A DNA stretch of 64,000 nucleotides from Planctomycetota bacterium. GTDB lineage: Bacteria > Planctomycetota > GCA-002687715 > DRQF01. The translations under genes and the position numbers were made by a program. The notes under the pieces were generated by a model. That model saw nothing but the letters and a program-made list of their open reading frames with translations. It did no database searches and was not told the origin of the DNA. The stretch spans positions 8,122-72,121 of the forward strand of contig JAWKSY010000022.1 in the NCBI GenBank assembly GCA_041402125.1. Reading direction: 5' to 3'. Below are positions 7,901-63,904 of this stretch, piece by piece. Each line of letters begins with the position of its first letter. Position 1 is the stretch's first letter.

Positions 7901-7904
7901 GAGG

Positions 7905-10038: not shown

Positions 10039-10073
10039 CGTCGTGTCCTCCGTCCGTACCCGTCCCGGCCGCC

Positions 10074-12914: not shown

Positions 12915-13054
12915 GGGGGGCTCCTTCGACGCCGGTGGCGCTCCGCCCGGCCCGGGCCGGCGGGGTCGACCGAATCCTCGCCCCCGGAGCGCCGTCTGTC
13001 GAGCATCGTCACCGCGGCCGGGAGGGCGCCTCCGCGGTCCGGGGGAGCATTTTC

Positions 13055-22002: not shown

Positions 22003-22065
22003 GACGGGGGGCGACAGCGGCCGGCGGCTGGGGTAGAACGGGCCCTCGCCCCCCAGGAGTCCAGC

Positions 22066-34057: not shown

Positions 34058-34151
34058 CGACGTTCTCTCCAGCGGGGCCGTCGCGACGGCGCGGTCAGGG
34101 ACGGGGATTGTGTCACCCCCGCGCGACGCGCGCCACTCGGTCCCCGCGGGA

Positions 34152-34952: not shown

Positions 34953-35033
34953 GCTCGCGGGCTCCTCGTCGGGTGCGTCGGACCGGGATATACTCGCCGG
35001 CGTCCCCGGGGGAACAAGTCGCCGACGGAGGGA

Positions 35034-36521
35034 ATGATGGCCGCCCCGTTTCGCCTCTATAGCACCTTGAGCCGCTCGACCGAGGCCTTTCAGCCGATAA
35101 CCCCGGGGAAAGTCTCGATTTATGCCTGCGGCATGACCCTGAACGGGAACGTCCACGTCGGTCACGCCCGCGCCTTCGCGGTCTTCGACGCCTTCGTGCG
35201 CTACCTGCGGCACCGCGGCTGGGACGTCACCTACGTCCGGAACTTCACCGACGTCGACGACAAGATCATCCTGCGGGCGAACGAGCTCGGCGAGGATCCG
35301 GCGGTGACGGCCGAGCGCTACATCGCCGACTTCCACCGCGACACCCACGCCCTGGGGCTGGCCGATCCCGATCGCGAGCCGCGCGTCACCGAGTCGATCC
35401 CCGAGATCATCGCGATGATCGCGACCCTCGTCGAGAAGGGGCACGCCTACCCGAGCGAGGGCTCGGTCTGGTTCGACGTCACCAGCCACCCGAGCTACGG
35501 CAAGCTCTCGGGCCAGAAGGTGGCCGAGCTCCGCAGCGCCGACGAGCAGGCCGGCAAGCGCCACGCGGCCGACTTCGCGCTCTGGAAGGCGGTCAAGCCT
35601 GGGGAGCCCTCCTGGGAGAGTCCCTGGGGATCCGGCCGGCCGGGCTGGCACATCGAGTGCTCGGCGATGGTCAAGGCGACGGTCGGCCCGACGGTGGACA
35701 TCCACGCCGGCGGACTCGATCTCGTCTTCCCGCACCACGAGAACGAGGTCGCGCAGTCCGAGTGCGCCAACGGCACGCACTACGCGCGCTACTGGATGCA
35801 CAACGGTCTCCTGACGATGTCCGGCGGCCAGAAGATGGGGAAGAGCCTCGGCAACGTCATCAACCTGAAGGAGCTGCTTGAGCAGTTCCCCGCCGAGGCG
35901 ATGCGCACCTACTACCTCCAGAACCACTACCGCTCGCCGCTGCCCTGGAGTCCCCAGGCGCTGCCCGACGCGCTCGGCATGCTCGCCCGCCTCTACGACG
36001 CGCGCGAGAAGGCCGAGGCGATGGGCGGGAGCGAGGACGCGGAGCGCGTGGCGAAGGACCTCGGCGAGGACGCGCAGCGCGTCCTCGATCTCTCGGCCGG
36101 ATTCGCCGATCGCTTCCACGCCGCGCTCGACGAGGACTTCAGCTCGCCGCAGGCCCTCGGCCTCGTCTTCGAGCTCGCCCGCGCCGTCAACCGATTCGCC
36201 AACCACAAGAAGGCGAAGGCGCGGGGCGGTCCGGTCGTGGCGCCGGCGCTGGCGGCCTTCGAACTCGTTCACCGCGCGACGGGACTGCTCGGCATGGACA
36301 CCGCCTCCTTCCAGGAGGAGGTCAAGGAGAAGCGCCTCGCCGCGCTCGGTCTCACGCGGGCCGACGTCGAGGCGCGGCTCGCCGATCGCGGCGCGGCGCG
36401 CGAGGCGAAGGACTGGGCGCGTTCCGACGCGATCCGCGACGAGCTGATCGCGGCGGGGATCACGGTCATGGACGGCGCCGAGGGCGTCGAGTGGCGCGTC
36501 AGCGTCGCCGCGGACGACTGA
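35034..36521 (+). CDS. cysS: Cysteine--tRNA ligase
   Basis: The class-I motifs are MYACGMTLNGNVHVGHARA (HIGH) and KMGKSLGN (KMSKS). The Cys-binding region is intact. It is transcribed divergently from map. Confidence 0.9.
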   Translation: MMAAPFRLYSTLSRSTEAFQPITPGKVSIYACGMTLNGNVHVGHARAFAVFDAFVRYLRHRGWDVTYVRNFTDVDDKIILRANELGEDPAVTAERYIADFHRDTHALGLADPDREPRVTESIPEIIAMIATLVEKGHAYPSEGSVWFDVTSHPSYGKLSGQKVAELRSADEQAGKRHAADFALWKAVKPGEPSWESPWGSGRPGWHIECSAMVKATVGPTVDIHAGGLDLVFPHHENEVAQSECANGTHYARYWMHNGLLTMSGGQKMGKSLGNVINLKELLEQFPAEAMRTYYLQNHYRSPLPWSPQALPDALGMLARLYDAREKAEAMGGSEDAERVAKDLGEDAQRVLDLSAGFADRFHAALDEDFSSPQALGLVFELARAVNRFANHKKAKARGGPVVAPALAAFELVHRATGLLGMDTASFQEEVKEKRLAALGLTRADVEARLADRGAAREAKDWARSDAIRDELIAAGITVMDGAEGVEWRVSVAADD

Positions 36522-39092: not shown

Positions 39093-39476
39093 GGTCGGGG
39101 GCTCCGGACGGCGGTGCGGGCGGGACCGGTGCCGCGGACGATACCCGGAATCGGGGGCCCTCGATCGGGCCTCCGGGACGCTCGAGGGGGCCCCGGAGGC
39201 GAAAGGAGGGCGCCGAGGAATAATCCTAAGCCTCATTTCGGCAGATCTTTAGGGTCCAGCGCCGTGCTTTCCGGGGCGGGGAGTGGGGTCAAGGGATGAT
39301 AGACATCCGCCGAAAATCAGACGGTCGAGGCCCTCCGGCGCCACGGTTCGTGGCGTCGCCGGGGCGGCCGGTCGCGGAGATTTCTCGCGACGGACACCAT
39401 TTCCGGCGAATCGGTTGACACTTTCGCGATGTCGCCCGTATGTTCCTCGACCCGGCGCGCCGTCGGGAGGGAAGGA

Positions 39477-39509
39477 CACACAAGTCTTTACCGAAAGGTG
39501 ACTTGTGTG
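39477..39509. promoter_or_regulatory. Perfect 10-bp inverted repeat CACACAAGTC-N13-GACTTGTGTG, 42 bp upstream of the dksA-like start; candidate operator or leader hairpin
   Basis: Read directly in the 458-bp AT-richer phoD/dksA-like divergent intergenic region. Confidence 0.3.
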
Positions 39510-39550
39510 GAGAAACGGGCCGCCGGCGACGACTTGAGGACCCAGGCACC

Positions 39551-39934
39551 ATGCGCACCACCGAGCTCAACAAGTACAAGAAACTGCTCCTCGCCCAGCG
39601 GGACGAGCTCTCGGGGGCCGTCAACTCGATGGCCTCCGAGGCCCTGAAGCCCAACGGCGGCGGACGCGACGTCGAGGACAGCGCCGACTTCGGCAGCGAC
39701 CAGTTCGAACAGGAGTTCACGCTGGGCCTGATGGAGAACGAGCAGAAGGTGATCCGCGAGATCGATCACGCCCTGAGCAAGATCGAGGACGGCTCCTTCG
39801 GCGTCTGCGAGGGCAGCGGGGAGAAGATCCCCAAGGCCCGTCTCGACGCCATCCCCTGGTGCCGCTACACGGTCGTCTACCAGGAGAAGCTCGAGCGCGG
39901 CGAGATCGTCCTCGACGACGACGACGACAACTGA
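39551..39934 (+). CDS. DksA/TraR-family protein with degenerate C4 zinc finger, poly-Asp C-terminus
   Basis: The 127-aa product starts MRTTELNKYKKLLLAQRDELSG and contains EQKVIREIDHALSKIEDGSFGVCEGSGEKIPKARLDAIPWCRYTVVYQEK. Confidence 0.7.
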   Translation: MRTTELNKYKKLLLAQRDELSGAVNSMASEALKPNGGGRDVEDSADFGSDQFEQEFTLGLMENEQKVIREIDHALSKIEDGSFGVCEGSGEKIPKARLDAIPWCRYTVVYQEKLERGEIVLDDDDDN

Positions 39935-40020: not shown

Positions 40021-41352
40021 TCAGACCAGGATGCCGTCCGCGGGACGGTCGGCGTCGCCGAGTTGCGCGGTGGGGACGCCGAGCGCCTCGAGGAGCGCCA
40101 GGTGCAGGCCGCACAGCTTGCGGTCGCGGCCGAAGACGAGGTGGCGGCCGCTCGCGAGTCGCCCGCCGAGTCCGCCGGCCACGAGCACGGGAAGGCTCTT
40201 CGGGTCGTGGGCGTTTCCGTCGCCGAGACCCGAGGCGAAGAGGATCGCGGAGTTCTCGAAGAGGGTGGAGTCGCCCTCGGGGATCTCCTTCATCGCCTGG
40301 ATCATCCGCGCGAGCTGCTCGACGTGCCAGCGGTTGATGAGCGCGTACTGCGCCGTCTTCTCCGGCCGGTTCTCGTGGTGGGAGAGCTCGTGGAATCCGC
40401 CCGCGACGCCTTCGAGGAAGCTGAAGTTGAGTCCCGAGACCGCGTTCCCGAACATGAAGCTCGCGACGCGGGTGAGGTCGGCGCGGAAGGCGGCGACGAC
40501 GAGGTCGAGCATCAGCCGCGTCCGCGTGGGGAAGTCGCGCGCGTCCAGTTCGTCCCGTCGCGCCTCCGGCAGGACGGCGTCGGCCGCCAGGCCGAGCCGG
40601 CGACGCTCCTCGGCCTCGTCGCCGGCGCGACGGCGCGCGAAGTCGTCGATGCGACCCTCGAGGGCGTGGACGGAGTCGAGATACTCGTCGACCTTGGCGC
40701 GGTCGCGGCCCGAGAGCGCGCGGGAGAGCGCGCGCGCCTCCTCGAGCACGAGATCGACCACGCGGCGATCTCGCGGTCGCGCGCCGGCCCGCGAGCCGCG
40801 CACCAGGCGTTCGAAGACGAGGCGCGGACGGATCTCCTTCGCGGCGGGGAGGGTGGGGCTGCGCCAGGAGACGTGGGCGCCGTAGACGGTGCTGTAGCCC
40901 ATGTCCACGACGTTGCGCACCGGTTCGGTCCCGAGCTCGAGCGAGGGGATCGGCGTGTCCCGGCCGAGGACCGCCGCGGCGATCTGGTCCATCGTCGTGC
41001 CGCAACGCACGTCGTGTCCGCCGGTCCGCTTGACCCTCGCGCCCGAGAGCAGCGAGGTCGTCTTGACGTAGTGCCCCTCGCCCTCGAAGGCGTTGCGGTT
41101 CCGGAGGCCGGACAGCACGAGGACGCGATCGCGGTGGGGACGCAGCGGCTCGAGCGTCGGCGTGAGCCGGTAGGCGGCGCCCGTCTCCTTCGGCGTCCAG
41201 CTCGGAACGTGCACGCCGTTCGGCATGAAGAGCACCGCCAGCCGTCGCGGCGCGGGGGCGGCGTCCTCGCGGAAGGTCTCGAGACGCGGGAGCGCGAGGG
41301 CGACGCCGGCCGCGCGAAGGAATCGACGTCGGTCCATCGGCGCGCGCATCAT
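40021..41352 (-). CDS. DUF1552-domain protein, Tat signal
   Basis: The product starts MMRAPMDRRRFLRAAGVALALP. Conserved DUF1552 blocks are LAVLFMPNGV, LVLSGLRNR and FMFGNAVSGLNFSFL. The start overlaps the stop of the upstream DUF1592 gene as ATGA. Confidence 0.8.
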   Translation of the reverse strand: MMRAPMDRRRFLRAAGVALALPRLETFREDAAPAPRRLAVLFMPNGVHVPSWTPKETGAAYRLTPTLEPLRPHRDRVLVLSGLRNRNAFEGEGHYVKTTSLLSGARVKRTGGHDVRCGTTMDQIAAAVLGRDTPIPSLELGTEPVRNVVDMGYSTVYGAHVSWRSPTLPAAKEIRPRLVFERLVRGSRAGARPRDRRVVDLVLEEARALSRALSGRDRAKVDEYLDSVHALEGRIDDFARRRAGDEAEERRRLGLAADAVLPEARRDELDARDFPTRTRLMLDLVVAAFRADLTRVASFMFGNAVSGLNFSFLEGVAGGFHELSHHENRPEKTAQYALINRWHVEQLARMIQAMKEIPEGDSTLFENSAILFASGLGDGNAHDPKSLPVLVAGGLGGRLASGRHLVFGRDRKLCGLHLALLEALGVPTAQLGDADRPADGILV

Positions 41353-43220
41353 CGCTTCTCCTCCGCCCGGGGCCGCGTCGTCTCGCGGCGCCGGAAGGTC
41401 TCGCTCGTCACCACCGCGCGCACCAGCGCGCGATAGCCGCCTCCCGCGTCCGCCGTGCGCGCGAGCACGTCGCGCACGGCGGCCTCGTCGGCGAGTCCGA
41501 GCTCGCGTCCGAGGGCGTAGGTCATCATCGCCTTCGCCGCCGCCCGGCGGAAGTCCCCGGCGCGCTCGAGGAGCGCGGCCTTCAGCGCCGCGGGACCCCG
41601 GATCTCGCGACCGTCGGGGAGCGTGGCGCGGTCGTCCACGGGGCGCCCCTGGTCCTCCTCCCGCGCGCGTCCGACCCCGTCGAAGCCCTCGAGCGCGAAT
41701 CCCAGGGGGTCGATGCGGGCGTGGCACGAGGCGCAGGCCGGATCCGCCCGGTGCTTCTCGAGTCGTTGACGCAGCGTGAGCCCGTCCTTCTGGACGTCGT
41801 CCTCGGGCAGCGTTCCGGCATTCGGGGGCGGCGGCGGGGGCGGCGCGTCGAGCAGGGTCTCCAGGATCCAGCGGCCGCGGAGGACGGGGCTCGTGCGCAG
41901 GGGGTAGGAGGTGAGGGTCAGCACCGCGCCCATCCCGAGGACGCCGCCGCGTCGGCGGTCGGTGAGCGCGACCGGACGCAGGGGCCATCCCTCGACGCCC
42001 GCGATCCCGTAGTGCTTCGCGAGCCGCTCGTTCAGCATCGCGAAGTCGGCGTCGAGGATCGTCTCGAGGGGCAGGTCCTCGGTCGCGAGTCGCTGGAAGA
42101 ACCGGACCCCCTCCTCGAAGAGGAGATCCTTCAGGGTCTGGTCGAAGCCCGAGTAACGGCGGAAGTCGACGGCCCGCCGCCGGATCTCGCGAAAGCCGAT
42201 CCACTGGCCGGCGAAGTTCTCGGCGAAGGCGCGCGAACGCGGGGCGGCGAGCAGGCGATCGACCTCGGCCGCCAGGACGGCCTCGTCGCGGAGGCGTCCC
42301 GCGTCCGCGAGGTCGCGGAGGCGGGAGTCCGGCATGGTGGAGGTGAGGAAGTAGGACAGCCGCACCGCGAGCTCGTGGTCATCGAGCGGGCGCGAGTCCG
42401 CCTCCGACTCCGCCGGCGCGTCGCGCTCCACGCGGTAGAGGAAGTGGGGTGAGAGGAGGGCGCTCTGGAGGGCCGCGCGCCGGCCGGCGCGCGGCGAGGG
42501 ATCCTCGGGCCGGACGGCGCAGAGCGCGACCCGGGAGGCGATCTCGCCGCTCGTGGGCGGCCGGCGGAAGGCGCGTCGCAGGAAGGACGCGACGAAGGCC
42601 GCGTCGTCGAGGTCCGGGAGGTAGGCCTTCCTCGCCAGCCCCTCGTCGGCATCGAGCGCGTCGAGGATCTCGACCGTGGCGTCGAAGTACTTCTCGACGA
42701 GGGTGGGGCTCGCGAAGAGGGTGTCGCCGAGGTTGTCGAACCCGCCCGTGGCCGCCTCGGCCGGGAAGCGCTCCGCAGCGTCGAACGTCACCCCGAGCAG
42801 GTCGCGGATCGTCCGGGCGTACTCGTCGGGCGACAGGCGCCGGAGGGTGGGGCGGCCGGGAGAGGCCGGCCCGGACCGCGCCGCCGCGATCCGCTCGAGG
42901 TCCCGGACGAAGGCCTCCACGGCGGCGGCCTCGGGACGGTCCTTCCGGGACGCGGGCGGCATCTCGCCCCGCCCGACGAGCTCGGCCGCCCGGGCGAGGA
43001 GTTCCGGATCACCTTGCGCCGCTTCGAGATCCGTCAGGCCGGCGAAGTCGACGCCGCCCCGGACCCGCCGTCCCGAGTCGTGGCAGTCCGCGCAGTGGCG
43101 ATCGAGGAAGGGACGGACGCGTCCCCAGGCGGCGGCCGGATCCTGCGCCGGGGCGAGCCCGCCGAGCCCGGCGAGGGCGGCGGAAAGAAGGAACAGAAGC
43201 GTCGTCCGGGGGTTGTACAT
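41349..43220 (-). CDS. DUF1592/DUF1595/DUF1587/DUF1588-family protein with N-terminal cytochrome-c-like CxxCH motif (PSD1-like), signal peptide
   Basis: The signal peptide is MYNPRTTLLFLLSAALAGLGG. The heme motif is RHCADCHD. The C-terminal conserved region reads LGMGAVLTLTSYPLRTSPVLRGRWILETLL ... CASCHARIDPLGFALEGFD. The 924-aa track ORF extends upstream through antisense junk. Confidence 0.8.
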   Translation of the reverse strand: MYNPRTTLLFLLSAALAGLGGLAPAQDPAAAWGRVRPFLDRHCADCHDSGRRVRGGVDFAGLTDLEAAQGDPELLARAAELVGRGEMPPASRKDRPEAAAVEAFVRDLERIAAARSGPASPGRPTLRRLSPDEYARTIRDLLGVTFDAAERFPAEAATGGFDNLGDTLFASPTLVEKYFDATVEILDALDADEGLARKAYLPDLDDAAFVASFLRRAFRRPPTSGEIASRVALCAVRPEDPSPRAGRRAALQSALLSPHFLYRVERDAPAESEADSRPLDDHELAVRLSYFLTSTMPDSRLRDLADAGRLRDEAVLAAEVDRLLAAPRSRAFAENFAGQWIGFREIRRRAVDFRRYSGFDQTLKDLLFEEGVRFFQRLATEDLPLETILDADFAMLNERLAKHYGIAGVEGWPLRPVALTDRRRGGVLGMGAVLTLTSYPLRTSPVLRGRWILETLLDAPPPPPPPNAGTLPEDDVQKDGLTLRQRLEKHRADPACASCHARIDPLGFALEGFDGVGRAREEDQGRPVDDRATLPDGREIRGPAALKAALLERAGDFRRAAAKAMMTYALGRELGLADEAAVRDVLARTADAGGGYRALVRAVVTSETFRRRETTRPRAEEKR

Positions 43221-43352
43221 GTATGGCCCTCCCGGCCCTCCGTCCGTCCCCGTAGCTTCTGGAAGAGGCCGGGCCGGTCGGCGACCGGGCCGCGCCGGAC
43301 CGTTCGCGGTGCTATGCTCCGCTCCCGCGCATCCTGAAGGAGACCTCAGCCC

Positions 43353-44129
43353 ATGTCGATCAGATTCCTCGCGCTCGCCGCGCTCCTCGCCTTCGCGTCC
43401 ACGTCCGCCTTCGCCCAGGTCGAGCCCAAGCCGACCCCGGTGAAGCCCGGAGTCGAGAAACCCACCGGCGACGCGCCGGTCAAGCCGGACGCGGCGAAGA
43501 AGGAGGTCACGATCCCCTTCGTCGGCAACGAGAAGTGCCCGCTGACCGGCGAGAAGGTCAACTCGAAGTACTACGCCGAGAAGGACGGCGAGCGCATCTA
43601 CACCTGCTGCGGCGACTGCGCGGCGAAGGTGGAGGCCGACTTCGAGGCCGCCAAGAAGAAGGCCTACCCCGAGGACAAGGTCGTCGAGATCAAGACCGAG
43701 AAGTGCATGATCATGACCCGCAAGGACGTGAAGTCGAACCACTCGGTCACGTTCCAGGGCCACAAGATCAGCTTCTGCTGCAAGCGCTGCGTGAAGACCT
43801 TCAAGTCCGCGCCGCAGAAGTACCTCACCCTCGCGCTCCATCCCGAGCTCGTCGACGCGAAGAACAAGACCTGCCCGGTGATGGACAAGGAGGAGGTCGA
43901 CGCCGACCGCTTCGTCGTCTACGACGGCTTCCTGATCAACCTCTGCTGCAAGAAGTGCCAGGGCGCGTTCAAGAAGGACCCGGAGAAGTACGTCGAGGCG
44001 ATGGGCCTGCGCAAGATGAAGGCGAAGGCGAAGAGCAAGGACGACGACGACGATGATGATGACGACGATCATCACGAGCGTCGTCGCAAGCCGGCCGCGG
44101 GCAAGCCGGCGTCCGGCGATCACGACTGA
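43353..44129 (+). CDS. Secreted protein with three tandem YHS-like metal-binding domains and Asp10-His C-terminal tail
   Basis: The signal peptide is MSIRFLALAALLAFASTSAFAQ. Three repeats of C-P-x-x-G-x-x-V ... CC-x-x-C-x-x-x-F-x-x-x-P-x-K-Y are present: CPLTGEKV..CCGDCAAKV, CMIMTRKDV..CCKRCVKTF and CPVMDKEEV..CCKKCQGAF. The tail reads DDDDDDDDDDHHERRRK. GC3 bias is excellent and the protein is Lys-rich. Confidence 0.7.
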   Translation: MSIRFLALAALLAFASTSAFAQVEPKPTPVKPGVEKPTGDAPVKPDAAKKEVTIPFVGNEKCPLTGEKVNSKYYAEKDGERIYTCCGDCAAKVEADFEAAKKKAYPEDKVVEIKTEKCMIMTRKDVKSNHSVTFQGHKISFCCKRCVKTFKSAPQKYLTLALHPELVDAKNKTCPVMDKEEVDADRFVVYDGFLINLCCKKCQGAFKKDPEKYVEAMGLRKMKAKAKSKDDDDDDDDDDHHERRRKPAAGKPASGDHD

Positions 44130-44236
44130 CGTCGACGCCTGAACTTCCTCTTGCGAAGGAGCCCGTCGGTCCCTTGGGCGGCGGGCTCCTTTCGCGTCTC
44201 GGTCGTCTCCTGCCGCCCCGTTCCGGAGTGCGTCCC

Positions 44237-44599
44237 ATGCCGATCACCCGCCTCGCGCCCATCCTCCCCGTCCGCGACATGTCCGCCGCCGTCGAGTTCT
44301 ACGAGAAGCTGGGCTTCGAGCTCGTGAAGCGCGTCGACGCCTGGAACTGGGCGATGCTCGCCCGCGGCGAGGCGCGGATCATGGTCGATCAGTCGACGAA
44401 TCCGCATCCGGGGACCCGCCGCACCGGCGTCATCTACCTCTACGCCTCGGATCTCATCGCTTTCCATCGCGAGGCGACGGCGCGTGGTCTCGAGCTGCCG
44501 GAGCCGGAACCGACATTCTACGGAATGATCGAGATCCGGATCGAGGATCCCGACGGCAACCGGCTCTGGATCGGCGAGGAGCCGGCGACGGTCGGTTGA
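44237..44599 (+). CDS. VOC-family (glyoxalase/bleomycin-resistance fold) protein
   Basis: The product reads MPITRLAPILPVRDMSAAVEFYEKLGFEL ... YGMIEIRIEDPDGNRLWIGE. The ATG is at 44237. Confidence 0.75.
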   Translation: MPITRLAPILPVRDMSAAVEFYEKLGFELVKRVDAWNWAMLARGEARIMVDQSTNPHPGTRRTGVIYLYASDLIAFHREATARGLELPEPEPTFYGMIEIRIEDPDGNRLWIGEEPATVG

Positions 44600-44747
44600 G
44601 AGTCCGCGAAGATACCCCCGCTGGCTTCGACCGGCTGCAACGGCGCCGGGCTTCGTCATGCCTCCTTGCCCGGCGCCGATTCGCACGGTCTCGGGCCGAC
44701 GCGGGGATATCTTCACGGACTCCGATCCCGACCGGCGCCGACCCGCC

Positions 44748-47468
44748 TCACTCCAGTCCGAGTCGCCGGAGCCCGCTCGCGACGTGGAGGTCGCGGGCGT
44801 GCCCGAGATTCGCCTCGTCGACGACGCCCTCGATGCGGACTGCGTGCCAGTGGACCTGCAGGTCGGTGTGCGTCCGCAGGAACACGCGCCCTCCCTGCGT
44901 CGTGGCGCCGCTCAGGGCCGCCACCGGAGCGTCGTCGACCGAGCAGGCGACGCGTCCCTTCTCGTCCCGCACCATCGAGACCCGGTAGCTCCGATCGAAC
45001 TCGAGGGCGAGATCGCCGCCGACGAGCTCGGCGAGCATCCCCTTGCGCAGCGATCCGAGGCAGCTCACCAGCGACGAGATGATGAAACTGCGGCCGCCGT
45101 CGTCGGCGAAGGCGACCCCGAAGTCGAAGGTGTCGGCGCGAGTGCGGTCGCGACCCGAGCTGTCGACCGAGATCGTGTACTCGATCGCGATCCGACCGGT
45201 CAGCGGCAGTCGCCAGATGGCCGCGGCCGACCCGCTCATCACGAGTCCGGACTCGTTGATCTCGAAGGTCGGCTTGCGGCCGAGGATGGCGGTGGCGAGA
45301 TCCTGCTCGGGGCCGAGGTTGCCCGGGTAGGCGGCGTCCACCGTGAAGTCCGCGAGCTGCGCCGGGTCCTTGAAGTCGTAGTCCACGCGGAGGCGCTTTT
45401 TACCCAGGTCCTCGACCTTGCCCCGGAGGCCCCATCCGGCCGACGGATCGGCATCGAAGGTCATCGCGAGGAGATGCCGGGCGAAGCCCCGTCGCGCCTC
45501 GGCATCGGGAAGGTCCGCGATCTTCTCGCCCTCCGCGAGGCGTTCCATGGCATCGAGCCGCGCGCGGGCCTGCGCGGCGTCGGTGACGGGGGCGTGGTCG
45601 AAGGCGGAGAGGAAGTCGGCCAGGCGACGTCCGTCGGCGAGATCGCGGCGGATCGCCGGCGCCGCCTTCGCGAGGCCGTGGCCGCCGGGACCGATCTCGC
45701 GCTCCTTCCCCGGATCGGTGAGGAGGAGGAGGTAGGCCTCGATCCACTCCCGATCGTCCCGCATCATCTTGCGCCGGCGGGCCAGCTTCATGAGTCCGTC
45801 GACGCCGAGGTCGGACCAGGAGAGGAACTCGCCCTTGTCGAGCTCGATCCCCTCGTCGGTCCTCCCCGCCGCGCGACGACTGACGGTCTTGCCGCTCTCC
45901 GCGTCCGTGACCCGGAAGAACCAGCGCTCCTCGACGGCCCGCTCGCCGAACTCGCGCCGGAAGGCGAGCAGCTCCTCGAGGCGGGCCTTCTCCGCCGTGG
46001 CGGCGGCATCGGCCGGCGCGGCGAGCATCGCGAGGGCGTCGCGGATGGAGCCGCGCGCCGCCGCCTGACGCGCCGCGGTCAGGCGGTGGGCGGCGAGCTT
46101 CTCCGCCGGGACCAGCTTCGAGACGTCGTAGCCGCCGACCTCCTCGAGACCGCGCGGTCCGGAGCGTTTCGGTCCCTCGGTGACGAGCGACTTGAGGTCG
46201 GCGCGCGTCACCTCGCCGACGACCTCTCCGTTGCCGAGACGGAGCTTCACGAGCGCGTCGGTCGGTCGGCCCGCCAGGCGGGCGACGTGGGTCAGGAAAC
46301 GGCGCTCGAGCTGCACGAGATCGATCTCGCCGAGCGTGCTGAAGAACGCGTCCTTGGGCGCGAGACCGGACTGCGCGGCCGTGACGTAGCGGTGGAAGAC
46401 GTCGCGGTAGGCGCCGTCCTCGCCCTCCTCCAGGAACTGCACGAGGAGGAAGGACTGCGTGTAGAGGAACTCCAGCGAGGCCGACACCGCGAGCGGATTC
46501 GAGGAACGCTTCAGGGCCCGCAGGGCGGACTGCTGGTAGCTGTCGATCTCGACGAGATCCCGGATGGGGTGGATGAGCGGACGCATCGCATCCGATTCCA
46601 GCGCCTCGACGAACCGCTGGATGCGCGTGCGGTGATAGTCCGATCGGGCCAGGTCGCGGGGCGGTTCGGAACCCAGGTAGTCGGCCATTCCCTCCGCGTA
46701 CCAGATCGGCTTCGGCATCGCGTCGTCGCCCTGGCACCAGGCGTGCTGGAGCTGGTGCGCGAACTCGTGGAGGATGGCCGAGCGCTTCTCCTCGTCGAGG
46801 AACTGACGGTCCGTCGTCGAGAAGCTCCGCTCCCAGGTCACCGCGAGCCGGTTCTTGAACTGGTAGTGCGCGCGCGAGGACATCCCCTCGTAGCCCTGCG
46901 CCGTCATGTAGTCGTCGTAGGCGCCCTTCGAGGAGAGGATCGCGAGGCAGTAGTAGCCGAAGCCCTCGCGCAGCTTCAGTCCGAGCGGCTCGGCGTAGCG
47001 CTCGCGGAAGCCCTTCTCGAGACGGGTGAGCAGTTCGGCGTAGCCCTTCGCCAGCTCGTCGTAGTACGCGTCCTCGTCCTTCGGCGGCCGCTGGACGATG
47101 AAGAAGAAGGGCAGGGCCTCGACCTCCCGGTAGTCGACCGCCTTCAGGTAGGGATCCCGGTGGAGGGCGCGACGCACCTCGAAGTGACCGAGCCGCTTCG
47201 GATCGGAACGGATGAACTCGATCCTCGCCTTGACCTCCTTCACGTGGCTCGCCCAGGCCTCTCGTTCGGCGGCGAGCGCCCTGGCGTCGAGCTTCTTGCC
47301 CTCGATCTCCTTCCACCGCTTCGTGTCGAAGAGGATGGACCAGGTGCCGAGGTCGGCCTTGTCGAAGTCCTCGAGGTGCTCGTAGGGATCGAAGGTGACC
47401 GAGCGTTGCGCACGGAGCCCCGTCGAGGTCACGGCGATCACGAGGATCGCGATAGCGATGCGGATCAT
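44748..47468 (-). CDS. Large secreted protein (906 aa) with HExxH...E putative zinc-metallopeptidase motif; paralog A of a divergent pair
   Basis: The signal peptide is MIRIAIAILVIAVTSTGLRAQ. The HExxH motif is ILHEFAHQLQHAW, followed by WYAEGMADYLGS. It is paralogous over its whole length to 47709-50423. The 1942-aa track ORF is an artefact. Confidence 0.7.
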   Translation of the reverse strand: MIRIAIAILVIAVTSTGLRAQRSVTFDPYEHLEDFDKADLGTWSILFDTKRWKEIEGKKLDARALAAEREAWASHVKEVKARIEFIRSDPKRLGHFEVRRALHRDPYLKAVDYREVEALPFFFIVQRPPKDEDAYYDELAKGYAELLTRLEKGFRERYAEPLGLKLREGFGYYCLAILSSKGAYDDYMTAQGYEGMSSRAHYQFKNRLAVTWERSFSTTDRQFLDEEKRSAILHEFAHQLQHAWCQGDDAMPKPIWYAEGMADYLGSEPPRDLARSDYHRTRIQRFVEALESDAMRPLIHPIRDLVEIDSYQQSALRALKRSSNPLAVSASLEFLYTQSFLLVQFLEEGEDGAYRDVFHRYVTAAQSGLAPKDAFFSTLGEIDLVQLERRFLTHVARLAGRPTDALVKLRLGNGEVVGEVTRADLKSLVTEGPKRSGPRGLEEVGGYDVSKLVPAEKLAAHRLTAARQAAARGSIRDALAMLAAPADAAATAEKARLEELLAFRREFGERAVEERWFFRVTDAESGKTVSRRAAGRTDEGIELDKGEFLSWSDLGVDGLMKLARRRKMMRDDREWIEAYLLLLTDPGKEREIGPGGHGLAKAAPAIRRDLADGRRLADFLSAFDHAPVTDAAQARARLDAMERLAEGEKIADLPDAEARRGFARHLLAMTFDADPSAGWGLRGKVEDLGKKRLRVDYDFKDPAQLADFTVDAAYPGNLGPEQDLATAILGRKPTFEINESGLVMSGSAAAIWRLPLTGRIAIEYTISVDSSGRDRTRADTFDFGVAFADDGGRSFIISSLVSCLGSLRKGMLAELVGGDLALEFDRSYRVSMVRDEKGRVACSVDDAPVAALSGATTQGGRVFLRTHTDLQVHWHAVRIEGVVDEANLGHARDLHVASGLRRLGLE

Positions 47469-47708
47469 GGTCTTCGTCCGTGTCGGGCCCGATGCTGATG
47501 CGCATCCGGCCGGCCTGAATCCGGCCCCATGATAGCGGCGTCGACCGTCGGGAGTCGACCCGTCGACTCCCGACCCCGGTCGCCGGCGGGATCGTCCCCT
47601 CGCCTCCGGCCGAAATTGGACCGGTCCGCCCGGAGTCCGATAGAATCCGCGCCGTTCAGGCCGTCGCGGGCCGGGCCCCGCGCATTCCCACCGACTCCGG
47701 GGTCCCCG

Positions 47709-50423
47709 ATGTTCCGTCTCGCCCTTCTGGCCCTCCTGCTGACGACCGCCGGCTCGGTCGTCGCCCAGACGCGCTCCTTCGACCCCTGGAAGGACCTCAC
47801 CGGCTACGAGGAGGCGACGCGCGGCGAGTGGCAGTCCTTCTGCGACGTCGAGAAGTGGCGGGCGCGGCTCGGACTCGAGGTGGACGCGGCCGGGCTGGCG
47901 CGCCTCCGGGAGGAATGGACGGCGGAGAAGAAGGCGATCGACGAGAAGATCGTCGCGATCCTCGCCGACCCCCACGGGCGCTCGCGATTCCACCTCCGTC
48001 GGGTGCTCGAGTCCGACCCCTACCTGAAGGCGGTCGATTACCGCGAGATCGAGATCGCTCCCTTCTGCTTCGTCATCCAGCGTCCGCCGAAGGACGATCC
48101 GGAGTACTACCAGGACGTGGCGGATGCCTACGCCGGGGTGCTCCGCGACGTGGAGAAGGACTTCCGTCGGCTCCTGGTGGAACCCCTGAAGCTGACCCTG
48201 CGGCCGAAGCACGGTTTCTTCGGACTCGTCATCCTCGCCTCGGAGGGGAGCTACGTCGACTTCCTGAAGGCGCACCGGATCGCGACCGTGGCGAGCCGGG
48301 CGCACTACGATCCCGCGACGCGGCTGTCCGTGAGCTGGGAGCGGAGTTTCGGGCGCGGCTCCGCGAAGCACCTCGACGAGGAGAAGCGGATCGCCCTGCG
48401 CCACGAGCTGGTCCACGCGCTGCAATGGGCCTACATCGCGCGCCCGGCCGGAAAGCGACTCCCGGTCTGGCTCTCGGAAGGACTGGCCGAGTTCTTCGCG
48501 TACGGCCCGGGCGCGGATCCCGCCCCGGATTCGCTGGCGGCGCTTCGGATCCGCAACGTGCTCGACCTGCTCGCGTCCGAGACGGGTCAGCGTTACCTCC
48601 ATCCGATCCCGGATCTCGTCGAGATCCAGAGCTACGCCCAGTCGACGGACTTCGCGAAGCGACGGACCCAGGACCCCCGGGCGGAAGGGCGAGAGGTCGG
48701 CGGGCTCTACGGGCTCTCCTATCTCCTCGTCGAGTTCCTGCACGAGGCCCGGGGCGGCGCCTACCGCCCGCGCTTGCTCGACCTCGTCCGTCGGCTGGGC
48801 GCGGGGGAGGAGGCGGCGGCCGCCTTCTCGGGCGCCTTCGAGGGCATCTCGCCGGAGACGCTCGAGGCCGAGCTCATCGAGCGCGCCGCGCGCCTCGGGA
48901 GACGCGATCTCGCCGAGTTCGAGCACCGCAGTCTCGGCGGCGGCGTCCGCGTCGGATCGACCGCCCGGCCCGACGCCGCGGTGGCGGAGACGGCGCCGGC
49001 GGGGAAGCGTCGTCCGCCGCTCGGCCTGACGCCGGCCGAGCCCGTCGATTTCCGCTTCTTCGGCTCGATCTACACCTCGCCGGATTCCGGACGGATCGCG
49101 GTGCGCAAGATGCTCGCCGCCTTCGACATCGAGGGGGCGGAGCGGTTGCTCGCGCCCGTCAAGATCCAGCGGGCCTACGAGATCGGGCGGGAGGCCGCCC
49201 GACTCGCCAAGCTCAAGCGGGCCTTCGACGTGGTCGGGACCCGCGCGATCGAGGAGCGCTGGCTGGTTCCGGTCGAGGTCGACGGGAAGCGCGTGCATCG
49301 AAGGGTGCAGGCGGTGCACGACGACGGGCTCGAGCTCGATCGCGTCGGGCGCATCCGCTGGTCCGATCTCGGCGCGGCCGAGTTCCAGAAGCTCGGTCGC
49401 AAGAAGAAGATCTTCACCGGCGCCCTCGCCGAGCTCGACGACTACCTGCGGCTCCTGTCGGATCCGGAGGGCGCGAGGATCGCGGACGACGCCGAGAAGG
49501 AGATCAGGCAGGACGCGGAGAGGATCCGGGCCGACGTCCTCGATCCCCGCCCCTGGCTCGCCTACCGGCGCCTCTCCGCGGCGGTCTTCATCGACGACCC
49601 CGAGGTCGCCCGGCGGCGCCTCGCCGATCTCGAGGAGGTCTGCCGCGACGAGGTCCTCGTCGCGACCGTCGATCGCGAGAAGCTGGTCGAGTACGCGACC
49701 GCGCTCCTGAAGCTCGCCTTCCGGTGCGACGCCGGAACCAACTACGGTCTCGTCCGTCCGGTCGAGACGACGCCCGAGGGGCGCCTCCGCGTGAGCTACG
49801 ACTTCGCCGACGAGGCCCAGCTCGCCGACTTCCACTTCGGTTCCTATCCCCATGCGCTCTCGGACGAGGTCGACCTCTCGATCGGAGGCGGCGCGGTCCC
49901 TCGGATCCGGGCCCTCGCCAACGGCGGGCTCGAGGTGTCGGGCTCGGCGACCGGGCTCTGGCGTCTGCCGCTGAAGGGGAGGGTCATGGTGAGCTACCGC
50001 GTCGCCATCATCGAGGTGGCGAAGGGGAAGCTGGGTCGCCTCGACTTCGGCGCCGGGCTCGCGGACGACGGCGGCAAGAGCTTCCTCCTCGCCTCGCTCA
50101 ACGGTTCGCTCGCGGAGTTCCGCGGCGGCGTGATGACGAAGGTCGCCTCGACGACGTTCGCCCATCCGCGCGTCCTCGAGGACTACCAGGTGACGGTCGT
50201 TCGCGCGCCCGAGGGCGGGATCACCGCCCACGTCGACGGCGAGCTCGCGTCCGAGATCGAGAACACCACGGCGGACGGCGGCCGGATCTTCCTGCGCGCG
50301 CACACCGCCGCCCGGATCCGCTGGCTCGGGCTCGTCATCGAGGGCGAGCTCGACCGGGAGAACCTCGGGCACGCGCGCGACGCCTGGGTGGCGGCCGGCC
50401 TGCGACGACTGGGTCTGAACTGA
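47709..50423 (+). CDS. Large secreted protein (904 aa) with HExxH...E putative zinc-metallopeptidase motif; paralog B of a divergent pair
   Basis: The signal peptide is MFRLALLALLLTTAGSVVAQ. The HExxH motif is LRHELVHALQWAY, followed by WLSEGLAEFFAYG. Blocks shared with paralog A include DPYLKAVDYRE, FVIQRPPKD, SWERSF and the C-terminal GGRIFLRAHT ... ENLGHARD ... GLRRLGL. Confidence 0.7.
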   Translation: MFRLALLALLLTTAGSVVAQTRSFDPWKDLTGYEEATRGEWQSFCDVEKWRARLGLEVDAAGLARLREEWTAEKKAIDEKIVAILADPHGRSRFHLRRVLESDPYLKAVDYREIEIAPFCFVIQRPPKDDPEYYQDVADAYAGVLRDVEKDFRRLLVEPLKLTLRPKHGFFGLVILASEGSYVDFLKAHRIATVASRAHYDPATRLSVSWERSFGRGSAKHLDEEKRIALRHELVHALQWAYIARPAGKRLPVWLSEGLAEFFAYGPGADPAPDSLAALRIRNVLDLLASETGQRYLHPIPDLVEIQSYAQSTDFAKRRTQDPRAEGREVGGLYGLSYLLVEFLHEARGGAYRPRLLDLVRRLGAGEEAAAAFSGAFEGISPETLEAELIERAARLGRRDLAEFEHRSLGGGVRVGSTARPDAAVAETAPAGKRRPPLGLTPAEPVDFRFFGSIYTSPDSGRIAVRKMLAAFDIEGAERLLAPVKIQRAYEIGREAARLAKLKRAFDVVGTRAIEERWLVPVEVDGKRVHRRVQAVHDDGLELDRVGRIRWSDLGAAEFQKLGRKKKIFTGALAELDDYLRLLSDPEGARIADDAEKEIRQDAERIRADVLDPRPWLAYRRLSAAVFIDDPEVARRRLADLEEVCRDEVLVATVDREKLVEYATALLKLAFRCDAGTNYGLVRPVETTPEGRLRVSYDFADEAQLADFHFGSYPHALSDEVDLSIGGGAVPRIRALANGGLEVSGSATGLWRLPLKGRVMVSYRVAIIEVAKGKLGRLDFGAGLADDGGKSFLLASLNGSLAEFRGGVMTKVASTTFAHPRVLEDYQVTVVRAPEGGITAHVDGELASEIENTTADGGRIFLRAHTAARIRWLGLVIEGELDRENLGHARDAWVAAGLRRLGLN

Positions 50424-50454
50424 ATCGCCCCCTCGCGGAGGAGGAGAGCCGCCC

Positions 50455-50952
50455 ATGGAATCCATCGAGCTGATCCGCGGGAACCTCCGGAAGAGCCGCG
50501 ACATCGTTCTCTCGAAGATCGAGGCGATGCGGGAGCACGGTCTCGTCTTCCCGACGCCGCGGGGCGGATCCCACACGATCTGGGTCCTCGGCCACCTCGC
50601 CTACATCGAGGGGCTCGTCGTCACGCGATTCGCGATGGGGGAGGACCATCCCCGCCCCGAGTGGAAGGAGATCTTCGACGGCGGCGAGGTCCCGGCGGAC
50701 CCGACCGCGTTCCCGGGCTTCGACGAGACGCTCGCGGTCTGTCGCGCCGCCCGCGAGGAGACGATCGCGCGCCTGGACGGTTTTTCTGAGGCCGATCTCG
50801 ACCGGCCGAGCCCCGGCTGCCCCGCGGGCGTCGAGGACACCTTCGGCACCTGGCGACACTGCTTCCAGTTCGTCGCCGACCACTGGTACATGCACCGCGG
50901 CCAGCTCGCCGACGCCCGCCGGGCCGCCGCGATCGACCGCATGTGGTTCTGA
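50455..50952 (+). CDS. DinB-family (DinB_2 / YfiT-like) metal-dependent hydrolase-fold protein
   Basis: The product reads IWVLGHLAYIEGLVV ... VADHWYMHRGQLADARR. Confidence 0.8.
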   Translation: MESIELIRGNLRKSRDIVLSKIEAMREHGLVFPTPRGGSHTIWVLGHLAYIEGLVVTRFAMGEDHPRPEWKEIFDGGEVPADPTAFPGFDETLAVCRAAREETIARLDGFSEADLDRPSPGCPAGVEDTFGTWRHCFQFVADHWYMHRGQLADARRAAAIDRMWF

Positions 50953-51048
50953 TCCGCCCCCGGCGACCCCGCGCGCGCCGACCTTGACGGGAGCGCGTCG
51001 CGGAGGGTCTGCTGGTCTCGTTGCTCGGCCCCCCCTCCGGAGTCCGCG

Positions 51049-53151
51049 ATGAAGCGCGCCGCCCTGGCCCTCGTCCTCGTCGTCATCAGCCCCGCCCTGC
51101 ATGCGCAGGACCCCGCCCCCGGGAGCCGGATGGTTCCGGAGGGAGCCTCCGTCGAGGAGGTCGTCCGCGCGGCGGCGGAGGTGCGGCCGCACCTGCGGCA
51201 GGTGGTGTGGCAGGAGATGGGGTTCACCGCCTTCGTCCACTTCGGGATGAACACCTTCACCGATCGAGAGTGGGGGGAGGGGAACGAGGATCCGGCTCTC
51301 TTCGACCCGAAGGAATTCGACGCGGACCAGTGGGTCGCGAGCTTCCGCGCCGCGGGGATGAAGGGGCTCGTGCTGACGGCGAAGCACCACGACGGCTTCT
51401 GTCTCTGGCCGACGAGGACGACGCCGCACTCGGTCGCGGCGAGCCCCTTCCGCGACGGGAAGGGGGACGTCGTCGGCGAGGTGGCGGCGGCCTGCCGTCG
51501 CGCCGGGCTGCGCTTCGGGATCTACCTCTCGCCCTGGGACCGGAACGCGAAGAGCTTCGGGACGAAGGAATACGACGAGCTCTTCCACGCCCAGCTCCGC
51601 GAGCTGATGACGGACTACGGACCGCTCTACGACGTCTGGTTCGACGGGGCGCACGCGCCGGCGGACCGACCCGAGATCTTCGACTGGGCGCGCCACTTCG
51701 CGCTGGTGCGGAAGCTCCAGCCCATGGCCTGCCTCTCGATCGTCGGGCCCGACGTCCGCTGGTGCGGCAACGAGGCCGGGCGGACGCGGGCCGAGGAGTG
51801 GAGCGTCGTGCCCCTGCCGACCGACCTTTCGGCGGCGGCGGAGGAGGACTGGCGCGTCGCGGCCGCCTACCGGTCGGTGGACGTCCAGGCCGCGGATCTC
51901 GGCTCGCGGGCGCGGCTCGCGGGCGCGCGGCGGCTCGTCTGGTGGCCGGCGGTGACGAATACCTCGATCCGGCCGGGCTGGTTCCACCATCCGGCCGAGG
52001 ACGGGAGCCTGAAGGGGCTCCTCGAGCTCTTCGACCTCTGGGTCGCGGCGGTGGGGGGGAACGGACACCTCCTGCTGAACGTCCCGCCGGACCGGCGGGG
52101 ACGCATCGCCGAGGGAGACGCGGCGCGTCTCGCCGAGCTGGGCGCGCTGCTCGACGCGACCTTCGGGCGTGACCTCGCCGCGGACGCGACGCGCAAGAAC
52201 TACGGGGGCCGCGTCCTCGAGGTGATCTTTCCCGAGGCGCGCGCGGCGAGCTTCCTCGACGTGCGCGAGGACGTGGAGTCGTCCAGCCAGCGCGTCGAGA
52301 GCTTCCGCCTCGACGCCTTCGACGGGAACGCCTGGCGCGAGGTCTCGCGCGGGTCGACGATCGGCATGCGCCGGATCCTGCGGTTGCCGACGACGCCCGC
52401 GCGCGGCTGGCGAGTCTGGGTGACCTCGTCCCGCGGGGCGCCGGCGCTTGCCGCGTTGAGCGTCCACCGCACTCCCGATCTGCTCGACGCCCCCCGCATC
52501 GATCGCGATCGCGAGGGGCGGGTGAGCCTCACCGCGCCGGGCGCGGGGTCCATCCTCTTCACCGTGGACGGGAGCGAGCCGGGGGAGGGGTCGAGCGTCT
52601 ACCTCGGGCCCTTCCCGCTGCCGGAGGGAGGGCGCGTCCGCGCGCGGGCGGTGCCGAAGGCGGGAGCGGCGGTCTTCGCGGCCGCGGGCGCCTCGCAGTC
52701 GGAGCGCCGTTTCGGCCTCGCCAAGGGCGGCTGGCGCATCCACGCCGTGAGCAGCGAGCAGGCGCCCGCGGAAGCGGCGGCGCTCGCGATCGACGAGGAC
52801 CCCGACACGCTCTGGCACACGCGCTACTCGCCCGACACCCCGAAGCACCCGCACTCCATCACCCTCGATCTCGGGGCCGAACGCGCGGTGGGCTCGGTCC
52901 TCTACACCCCGCGGCGCGGGCAGGGGAACGGCACGATCCTCCGCCTCGCCATCGAGGTCTCGCGCGACGGAAAGACCTGGGAGACGGCGGTCCCGGCCCG
53001 GGAGCTCGAGAACATGAAGGCCTCGCCGACGCCCCGGGAGATCCCGTTCGACGCTCCCCGGCGGGTTCGTTACCTTCGCCTCGTGGCGCTCGAGGAGATC
53101 GCCGGGCGGCCCTGGGCCAGCGCGGCGGAGATCGACGTCTTCGCCCCCTGA
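51049..53151 (+). CDS. GH29 alpha-L-fucosidase with C-terminal F5/8 type C (discoidin) domain, signal peptide
   Basis: The GH29 core reads GMKGLVLTAKHHDGFCLWPT, FGIYLSPWDRN and YGPLYDVWFDGA. The C-terminal F5/8-C-like region reads AIDEDPDTLWHTRYSPD ... LRLVALEEIAGRPWASAAEIDVF. Confidence 0.9.
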   Translation: MKRAALALVLVVISPALHAQDPAPGSRMVPEGASVEEVVRAAAEVRPHLRQVVWQEMGFTAFVHFGMNTFTDREWGEGNEDPALFDPKEFDADQWVASFRAAGMKGLVLTAKHHDGFCLWPTRTTPHSVAASPFRDGKGDVVGEVAAACRRAGLRFGIYLSPWDRNAKSFGTKEYDELFHAQLRELMTDYGPLYDVWFDGAHAPADRPEIFDWARHFALVRKLQPMACLSIVGPDVRWCGNEAGRTRAEEWSVVPLPTDLSAAAEEDWRVAAAYRSVDVQAADLGSRARLAGARRLVWWPAVTNTSIRPGWFHHPAEDGSLKGLLELFDLWVAAVGGNGHLLLNVPPDRRGRIAEGDAARLAELGALLDATFGRDLAADATRKNYGGRVLEVIFPEARAASFLDVREDVESSSQRVESFRLDAFDGNAWREVSRGSTIGMRRILRLPTTPARGWRVWVTSSRGAPALAALSVHRTPDLLDAPRIDRDREGRVSLTAPGAGSILFTVDGSEPGEGSSVYLGPFPLPEGGRVRARAVPKAGAAVFAAAGASQSERRFGLAKGGWRIHAVSSEQAPAEAAALAIDEDPDTLWHTRYSPDTPKHPHSITLDLGAERAVGSVLYTPRRGQGNGTILRLAIEVSRDGKTWETAVPARELENMKASPTPREIPFDAPRRVRYLRLVALEEIAGRPWASAAEIDVFAP

Positions 53152-53218
53152 GATCGGCGCGGAGACCCCGCGCGCCCGCGAACGGACCCCTCGCGATCCC
53201 TGCGCCCCGGAACCCGAG

Positions 53219-54214
53219 ATGCGCCTCTTCGTCTGGATGTTCGCCCTCGGAGTCACGGGAGCCGTCGTGGCCCTCGTGCTCGGGGCCTTGCGCGCCGAGC
53301 GGCGCCCGCCGACCCTGCCTCGCGTGGAGGCGGAGGGAGCGGCCCGCCGCGTGATCTCGAGCGACGGCGTCACGCTCGAGTTCGCGCGACCGCCGCGCCT
53401 GATCCTGCCCACGAACGCGAGCGTCGTCGACCTGCTCGATGCCCTGGTGGGCCCCGAGCGCATCGCGGCGCTGCCCGAACAGGCCTTCCGCTGGTCGCGC
53501 CTCGCGCGCGACCGGGCCGGCTACGAGAAGCACCCCGTCTTCGCCCAGTACGAGGCCGAGACGGTCCTGGACCTCGCGCCCGATCTCGTCATCGCCTCGG
53601 CCTTCAACAACCCCGACACCCACGCGCGGCTCCGCGAGCGCGGCGTCGCGGTGCTGCGACTCGACGTCCGCAACTCCCTCGACGACGTCATGAAGGCGCT
53701 GCGGATGCTGGGATCCTTGCTCGGCGTCGAGGAGCGCGCGGAGACGGTCTGCGCGGAGATCGAGGCCCGGCGGGAGCGGTTGTGCGCCGACGCGGCCGAC
53801 CTCGACGGCATCACCGCCGTCTCCTACTCGAACGTCGGGAGCGGCGGCTGGAGCTTCGGCGCCGACTCCACGATCGACGAGGTCTTCCGCCTCGCCGGCC
53901 TCCGCAACGCGGCGGCGCGGGGCGGGCGCACGGGGTCGATCACGATGAGCTTCGAACAACTCGTCGATCTCGATCCGGACCTGGTCGTGATGGGCGGGGA
54001 CGAGGGGCAGTCGACGAGCGCCGAGGTGCTGCGCGGCGAGGCCGCGCTCGACGGTCTGCGCGCGCGGCGCCGGGACGCCTTCGTCATCCTGCCGCCCGAG
54101 CTCGCCTCGACGAGCTCGCAGGAGATGCTGACCGCGGCGGAGTTCCTCGTCGGCGAGGTGCGGCGGCTGCGGGAGGCGGGCCGGATCGAGCGGAGGCCCG
54201 GCGATGGCCGCTGA
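53219..54214 (+). CDS. ABC transporter periplasmic substrate-binding protein, iron-siderophore/cobalamin (FecB/BtuF) class
   Basis: The product has class-III SBP architecture, with PDLVIASAFNNP and VDLDPDLVVMGG. It is followed by FecCD and FecE genes. Confidence 0.75.
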   Translation: MRLFVWMFALGVTGAVVALVLGALRAERRPPTLPRVEAEGAARRVISSDGVTLEFARPPRLILPTNASVVDLLDALVGPERIAALPEQAFRWSRLARDRAGYEKHPVFAQYEAETVLDLAPDLVIASAFNNPDTHARLRERGVAVLRLDVRNSLDDVMKALRMLGSLLGVEERAETVCAEIEARRERLCADAADLDGITAVSYSNVGSGGWSFGADSTIDEVFRLAGLRNAAARGGRTGSITMSFEQLVDLDPDLVVMGGDEGQSTSAEVLRGEAALDGLRARRRDAFVILPPELASTSSQEMLTAAEFLVGEVRRLREAGRIERRPGDGR

Positions 54215-63700: not shown

Positions 63701-63904
63701 GCCGGCCTCGCGGTCTCGGACCGGATCGCCCTGCGGGTGACCCCGCCGGAGTCCGCCCGGACGGCCCTCGAGACCTTCGCGGGCTTCGTCTCCGAGCAGG
63801 TCCTCGCCGGCTCCTTCGAGCTCGTCCCCGCCGCCGCGGGCGCCCACCGGGCCGAGCACGAGCTCGCGGGCGGCGCCTGCGTCATCGCCTTCGATCGGGC
63901 CTGA
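60740..63904 (+). CDS. ileS: Isoleucine--tRNA ligase, type 2 (eukaryote/actinobacterial-like, no C-terminal zinc finger)
   Basis: The HIGH-class motif is [20 protein letters not shown], the CP1 editing domain is present and the KMSKS-class motif is [12 protein letters not shown]. The RBS is AGGAAGGAG. The 1138-aa track ORF starts at an upstream in-frame site. Confidence 0.9.
   Translation: [1054 protein letters not shown]

Follow-up and report, generated by a model that had tools for sequence, protein, structure and literature searches.

Two divergently transcribed genes, here called A and B, in a 64,000-nucleotide stretch of a Planctomycetota contig (JAWKSY010000022.1; the whole stretch analysed is referred to as the window) probably encode two multidomain zinc metallopeptidases that descend from an ancient duplication, are exported by the Sec pathway and belong to a family not described before, whose named members all come from Planctomycetota. 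Both products are annotated as hypothetical proteins of a Planctomycetota metagenome-assembled genome (MAG), with 100% identity and coverage and equal length, and the two genes have a common coding signature in G+C content at codon positions 1/2/3 (A 0.71/0.46/0.92; B 0.74/0.47/0.92). An earlier first-pass annotation, made from the letters of the window, had placed the genes head to head across a shared 240-bp spacer, and the open reading frames (ORFs) and the NCBI annotation agree with its coordinates (Table 1).

A and B are full-length paralogues far beyond chance, with 36% identity over 892 BLASTP columns (E = 1e-159) spanning residues 25–906 of A and 23–904 of B. The first-pass annotation had recognised the full-length paralogy, although its identity figure of 40–45% was too high and its description of the C-terminal ~60 residues as nearly identical was overstated, as 30 of 60 positions (50%) are identical, including 17/25 at the very end. 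Among the shared blocks that it listed, DPYLKAVDYRE (A105/B103) and GLRRLGL (A899/B897) occur in both proteins, while FVIQRPPKD and SWERSF are exact in B only, the versions in A being FIVQRPPKD and TWERSF. The HExxH motif followed by a conserved Glu that it reported for each protein was found in both translations, with HEFAHQLQH (A234) paired with YAEGMADY (A257) and HELVHALQW (B232) paired with LSEGLAEF (B255). The best DNA-level stretches between the genes reach only 69–71% identity, which led us to reject recent conversion between A and B as well as an inverted repeat at the DNA level.

An exhaustive hidden Markov model (HMM) search over 1.84 billion cluster representatives matched 957 proteins with E ≤ 1e-3, of which 163 had E ≤ 1e-30; almost all matches are 800–950 aa long and align over their full length. 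The family comprises ~1000 clusters at 50% identity without a Pfam or NCBIfam model or a functional name; every source name seen reads ‘hypothetical protein’, and the named organisms include one Brocadiaceae MAG. The exhaustive search was needed to reveal the family because word-indexed homologue searches with A, B and the 135-sequence family alignment returned A, B and one relative, P0002, alone. Pattern scans of genome and metagenome contigs with a 3-sequence alignment gave no matches, and a later scan with another alignment gave 6 Planctomycetota loci. The literature searched for DUF1570, gluzincins or peptidase M9 in Planctomycetes yielded nothing pertinent.

Conservation was counted over 135 full-length family representatives in gene A numbering. 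HExxH and the downstream Glu are kept together in 63 of these; a further 18 retain the His pair and the Glu ligand but have the catalytic Glu replaced, mostly by Ala or Gly, and the remaining 54 are degenerate at the zinc site. The column of A E259 holds Glu in 108/135. Zinc-site states group by clade in a neighbour-joining tree, in which A, B and P0002 fall within intact-site clades and the nearest relatives of A and B all have an intact motif; one clade with both His and the Glu ligand has the catalytic Glu exchanged for Ala or Gly. Six further positions co-vary with the zinc site when the 63 intact-site members are compared with the 72 others: Y184 (100% vs 50%), H201 (94% vs 15%), T211 (95% vs 33%), Q241 (81%, or 51/63, vs 15%), Y311 (90% vs 14%) and Y336/337 (94% vs 17%). 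An acidic residue occupies position 263 in 57 of the intact-site members. A and B retain all six co-varying residues, with Ser at the T211 position in B, and the acid at 263. Since both also keep HExxH and the Glu, and losses elsewhere are joint and by clade, this argues that A and B are both catalytically competent, the family pattern being the one expected of active enzymes with putative pseudoenzyme sister clades.

AlphaFold2 models built with an 80-sequence alignment have the same secondary-structure layout for A (predicted local distance difference test score (pLDDT) 89.7, predicted template modelling score (pTM) 0.74) and B (pLDDT 89.1, pTM 0.70). In A, a signal helix and a short helical region lead into an alpha/beta domain (~105–400), followed by a helical region with a small beta-barrel (~517–550), a beta-sandwich (~681–883) and a terminal helix, and only ~80 residues precede the catalytic domain. 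The latter is predicted to adopt a thermolysin-like alpha/beta fold, as in gluzincins of clan MA(E), with HExxH on an alpha-helix (A 234–238 on helix 226–244; B 232–236 on helix 224–242) and the Glu ligand on the next helix (A E259 on helix 255–266; B E257 on helix 253–265). Its best structural matches are M9 peptidase domains, with 13–17% identity to collagenases, the nearest structures being Grimontia hollisae Ghcol (7wss), Clostridium tetani ColT (4ar8) and C. histolyticum ColG (2y3u). A catalytic-domain profile compared with PDB sequences retrieved M9 collagenases only, weakly (E 0.04–0.5), with HExxH and W..EG.AE[YF] in register; HEFAH of A aligned with HEYVH/HEYTH of the collagenases, and the E259 helix with their SEGVAEY/DEGTAEF gluzincin helix. 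In ColG, ColH and ColT, the second shell comprises a Gln that follows HExxH by one turn and a Glu placed one turn beyond the gluzincin ligand (PMC3711286), and comparable residues are present in A (HEFAHQLQ and EGMAD) and B (HELVHALQ and EGLAE). A phmmer search of A against PDB sequences gave no match, and the matches of a full-length family profile against PDB were mostly low-complexity helical noise (for example BRIL and designed proteins).

The architecture differs from that of the M9 collagenases, as the middle region of A and B is helical with a beta-barrel and their C-terminal domain is ConA-like, in place of the activator, PKD and collagen-binding domains, and a Pfam scan of both proteins at E ≤ 1 found no M9 N-terminal activator, PKD or collagen-binding domain. 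Residues 220–270 of B gave weak local matches to BSP, DUF1570, Peptidase_MA_2 and Peptidase_M9 and, in NCBIfam, to flagellinolysin. Peptidase_M9 (PF01752) itself did not match A and scored 11.6 bits against a cut-off of 26 in B, with weak matches in 6/53 family members (best E = 1.2e-4). The small clan MA families with an HExxH...E signature, DUF1570 (PF07607), Peptidase_MA_2 (PF13485) and BSP (PF04450), are far shorter (Pfam models of 129–207 positions) and cover only the zinc-site region of a ~900-aa protein, B scoring 14.0/22, 12.8/32.4 and 17.9/23.8, respectively (score/gathering threshold). The M30 hyicolysin-type peptidase lugdulysin (7bb8) scored below M9, with 11% identity and no sequence-level match. 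We file the family of A and B as a new and distant one within clan MA that has a new domain architecture, and not as a collagenase.

A beta-sandwich jelly-roll, as in ConA-like lectins/glucanases, is predicted for the C-terminal domain. The comparable structures are CBM66 (the Bacillus subtilis levanase module 4b1m) and DUF1080/3-keto-disaccharide-hydrolase-like domains (3hbk, 3imm and 4jqt), at 6–15% identity, and fusion of a ConA-like domain to an M9-like peptidase was not found among the matched structures. The Pfam scan left this domain of A and B without a match, and DUF1080 (PF06439) was detected in 1/53 members (E = 0.005). A side observation concerns the relationship of the domains: only in the ConA-like domain (36.5% vs 32.8%) and the C-terminal helix (73.9% vs 63.6%) does A resemble B more than its syntenic orthologue P0002, all other domains of A being closer to P0002. 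This oddity (residues ~681–906; 44748–45428 and 49749–50423) possibly stems from a ligand or partner that A and B have in common, from partial conversion long ago or from noise.

Heuristic inspection of both N-termini found a positive n-region, a hydrophobic core of 12–15 residues and the ending ‘..AQ’ followed by a conserved FDP at the predicted start of the mature chain, with no second membrane-like segment in either protein. The ‘..AQ’ ending is common to P0002, P0005 and P0007, the other relatives compared having GQ or AQ, and a hydrophobic N-terminal segment was detected by the same kind of heuristic in 115/135 full-length family members. Both proteins would be exported through the Sec pathway and act as zinc endopeptidases, in which the two His of HExxH and the downstream Glu would bind zinc (H234, H238 and E259 in A, with E257 as the Glu of B) and the Glu of the motif (A E235; B E233) would serve as the general base that activates water. 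H201, Y311 and Y336 probably line the active site, and strand 208–213 may act as a substrate-binding edge strand in the fashion of M9. The ConA-like/CBM66-like module would most plausibly anchor the enzyme on a glycan or on a glycoprotein substrate.

The origin of the pair can be read from a syntenic block shared by two Planctomycetota genomes, which extends over 40021–57054 of the window and 1–16817 of L001, the contig that encodes P0002. The order in the window is DUF1552, PSD-domain protein, YHS protein, glyoxalase, A, B, DinB, GH29 fucosidase, Peripla_BP_2, FecCD and ABC ATPase, whereas L001 is without the glyoxalase, B and DinB and has one family member, in the position and orientation of A. 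The window-only neighbours are a glyoxalase-fold gene at 44174–44599 (+) and a DinB-family gene at 50455–50952 (+), which starts 31 bp after B; the GH29 fucosidase of the block carries an F5/8-C domain. Identities are 43% for A–P0002, 36% for A–B and 32% for B–P0002, the neighbour-joining topology is ((A,P0002),B), and B scores below both A and P0002 against P0004, P0005 and P0006; judged by these comparisons, B is the more diverged copy. No B-type orthologue was found among the 1.84 billion representatives. Single copies within 6–10 kb were seen at 12 further distinct loci from other clades, a count that leaves out two further contigs. One other genome has adjacent members, as L014 (GCA_044229935.1, JBGASC010000011.1) encodes proteins of 932 and 937 aa that are 49% identical, in tandem at 7141–9939 and 10001–12814; in each, the zinc site has degenerated to YQxxK and H201, Y311 and Y336 are gone, and their residues mark them as a pseudoenzyme pair in a distant genome and a different clade. 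The contig of P0038, related to L014, ends just past its family gene with a cut ORF 30 bp downstream, and the pair is possibly conserved in that clade. Adjacent paralogues thus recur sporadically; the divergent arrangement itself was seen at no other locus among L001, the 12 single-copy loci and the L014 tandem.

We read the pair as an old local inverted duplication at a locus that holds one copy in the sole close relative. The duplication may be older than the divergence of the two genomes, B having then disappeared from the other lineage, or it may have come later, with B evolving faster. In another clade of the family, the P0004 and P0007 loci (L002 and L007) have a conserved housekeeping-like context comprising a Cons_hypoth95 methyltransferase, a ~260-aa hypothetical protein, the family member, a tRNA_bind protein, an SMC_N/AAA_23-domain protein (~555 aa), a pseudouridine synthase, and T2SS K and secretin. 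This context is unlike that of the window, so genomic context offers no consistent functional clue.

The spacer contains two back-to-back sigma-70-like matches, compared with 0.0 expected in shuffled sequences, and A and B are probably transcribed from separate back-to-back promoters. A perfect palindrome lies between the promoter matches and occurs nowhere else in the window, where chance would give 0.02 occurrences at ≤3 mismatches; it is a possible operator to which a dimeric regulator would bind. Rfam gave no match in the spacer, and no conservation was detected between the spacer and its counterpart in L001.

Several observations weigh against a peptidase role for A and B. No Pfam or NCBIfam model reaches threshold in either protein, all PDB sequence matches are below significance (E ≥ 0.04), and the fold assignment rests on predicted structures, with the zinc-site geometry taken from secondary structure and alignment. 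In both A and B, the Glu follows the second His by 21 residues, compared with 28–30 residues downstream of HExxH in clostridial M9 (PMC3711286) and 24 in the Ghcol alignment. M9 enzymes also have a double-Gly motif ahead of the edge strand, which ends in a Ca-binding Glu (PMC3711286), whereas the putative edge strand of A (LAVTWE, 208–213) follows KNR with no Gly-Gly visible by sequence and secondary structure; A E213 may be the counterpart of the Ca-binding Glu. Neighbourhoods vary among family members. In approximately half of the family the catalytic residues are gone, and with them H201, Q241, Y311, Y336 and the acid at 263, yet the whole 900-aa architecture is kept, so that the conserved core function of the family may not be proteolysis. 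Conservation of the motif in homologues had been set beforehand as the test of the first-pass peptidase call, and the outcome is mixed: the complete HExxH+E set is missing from 72/135 members, while its retention in 63, the clade-specific losses and the intact nearest relatives favour the call. The gluzincin-like reading is backed by the predicted structure and the evolutionary pattern. That A and B are instead mainly non-catalytic cell-envelope binding or scaffold proteins, whose role lies in the whole 900-aa architecture with the HExxH site as a dispensable relic, would fit the retention of all domains in members that lack HExxH+E, the fully degenerate tandem pair in L014 and the location of the near-invariant residues, which are mostly outside the zinc site (L178, L346, G473, R496, R504, D707, F708, G746 and G860). 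We regard this as unlikely, given that the six further putative active-site residues are jointly conserved in intact clades and all kept in A and B, and that the nearest relatives of both are all intact. That A and B are true collagenases of MEROPS family M9, which unwind and cut triple-helical collagen, is very improbable. M9 peptidase domains are the best structural matches and the zinc-site motifs align, but Peptidase_M9 remains below threshold, identity to collagenases is low, the accessory domains are missing from the Pfam scan, and the Glu spacing and the apparent lack of a double-Gly motif set A and B apart. The M9 peptidase domain alone, moreover, does not degrade native collagen.

The first-pass annotation had also presented the divergent arrangement as unusual and suggested a heterodimeric or differentially regulated peptidase pair. 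In its strongest form, this idea makes A and B an obligate pair, either a heterodimer or a two-step peptidase system, laid out divergently for co-regulation from one control region. Adjacency, the shared spacer with its promoter matches and unique palindrome, the closeness of A to B in the ConA-like domain and C-terminal helix, and the adjacent members in L014 all speak for such a pair. The syntenic site of the sole close relative holds a single copy, however, no B-type orthologue turned up among the representatives searched, the 12 further loci are single-copy, and the L014 pair is tandem, degenerate and from a different clade. We consider an obligate pair quite improbable, and the comparative data give no support to an unusual or conserved architecture or to a heterodimer. 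A broader speculation is that the family is new at the MEROPS level and combines a collagenase fold, a lectin-like fusion, and repeated pseudoenzyme clades and local pairs, with A and B (and the L014 pair) as physical partners on a glycoprotein of either the planctomycetal envelope or the extracellular matrix of algae or animals; taken as a whole, this seems to us rather improbable. Ancient duplication of an exported zinc peptidase remains the reading that we prefer.

Under this preferred reading, the family receives an assignment that can be tested, with an M9-like gluzincin domain linked to a ConA-like module, and the six residues that co-vary with the zinc site become a prediction of those that build the active site. 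The clean natural split between enzyme and pseudoenzyme clades is of more interest than the pair itself, since the divergent pair would be an ordinary old duplication that adds little beyond a convenient two-paralogue test system. Planctomycetota are degraders of complex glycoconjugates and have unusual envelopes. An exported protease anchored through a lectin-like domain could matter for glycoconjugate degradation or for the envelope.

Table 1. Features of the divergent gene pair, in window coordinates.
Feature	Position	Strand	Remarks
Gene A (NCBI R3F20_18045)	44748..47468	minus	906 aa, predicted exported multidomain HExxH protein
Gene A ConA-like/CBM66-like beta-sandwich, residues ~681–883	44820..45428	minus	predicted; followed by terminal helix 885–902
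Gene A M9-like gluzincin catalytic domain, residues ~105–400	46269..47156	minus	predicted
Gene A E259	46692..46694	minus	from translation; predicted third zinc ligand (W..EGMAD motif), with D263 as second-shell acid
Gene A HEFAH (H234, E235, H238)	46755..46769	minus	from translation; followed by Q241 (HExxHxxQ); predicted two zinc ligands and catalytic base
Gene A signal peptide, residues 1–21 (MIRIAIAILVIAVTSTGLRAQ)	47406..47468	minus	predicted (Sec), heuristic
Divergent intergenic spacer	47469..47708		exactly 240 bp
Sigma-70-like promoter match toward A (TCGACT-18-TATCAT)	47529..47558	minus	consensus match only
Perfect 10+2+10 palindrome (GGGAGTCGACCCGTCGACTCCC)	47550..47571		between the promoter matches, overlaps the -35 of the A-directed match; candidate operator
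Sigma-70-like promoter match toward B (TGGACC-18-TAGAAT)	47617..47646	plus	consensus match only
Gene B (NCBI R3F20_18050)	47709..50423	plus	904 aa, paralogue of A
Gene B signal peptide, residues 1–20 (MFRLALLALLLTTAGSVVAQ)	47709..47768	plus	predicted, heuristic
Gene B M9-like gluzincin catalytic domain, residues ~103–400	48015..48908	plus	predicted
Gene B HELVH (H232, E233, H236)	48402..48416	plus	from translation; followed by Q239
Gene B E257	48477..48479	plus	from translation; predicted third zinc ligand, with E261 as second-shell acid
Gene B ConA-like/CBM66-like beta-sandwich, residues ~681–881	49749..50351	plus	predicted

The G+C content of the window is 70–75% and long spurious ORFs are therefore plentiful. 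One of them, a minus-strand ORF of 1942 aa (44748–50576), contains gene A as its last 906 codons. It was rejected as one giant gene and taken as a high-GC artefact, because the 1036 codons upstream of gene A run in part antisense to gene B, have a non-coding G+C pattern across codon positions (0.90/0.48/0.74) and show no match to the family. The overlapping long ORFs at 44658–47498 (+), 45400–47505 (-) and 47828–50473 (+) are most likely spurious too.

Among the other genes of the window, the YHS/TRASH-domain gene at 43353–44129 (+), which has a YHS counterpart at the equivalent place in L001, shows extreme codon bias, with G+C of ~0.92–1.00 at third and ~0.31–0.37 at second codon positions. 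Exported-looking hydrolases include a GH95 enzyme with a PA14 domain (10074–13052, -), a tricorn-type S41 protease (22003–25299, +), a PhoD-like phosphatase (36528–39248, -) and the GH29 fucosidase (51049–53151, +). The window also encodes a CysS domain in the second half of the ORF at 33393–36521, a DksA-like protein (39419–39934), a Ser/Thr kinase (59105–60565, -) and a class-I tRNA synthetase of the tRNA-synt_1 family, possibly IleS (60488–63904).

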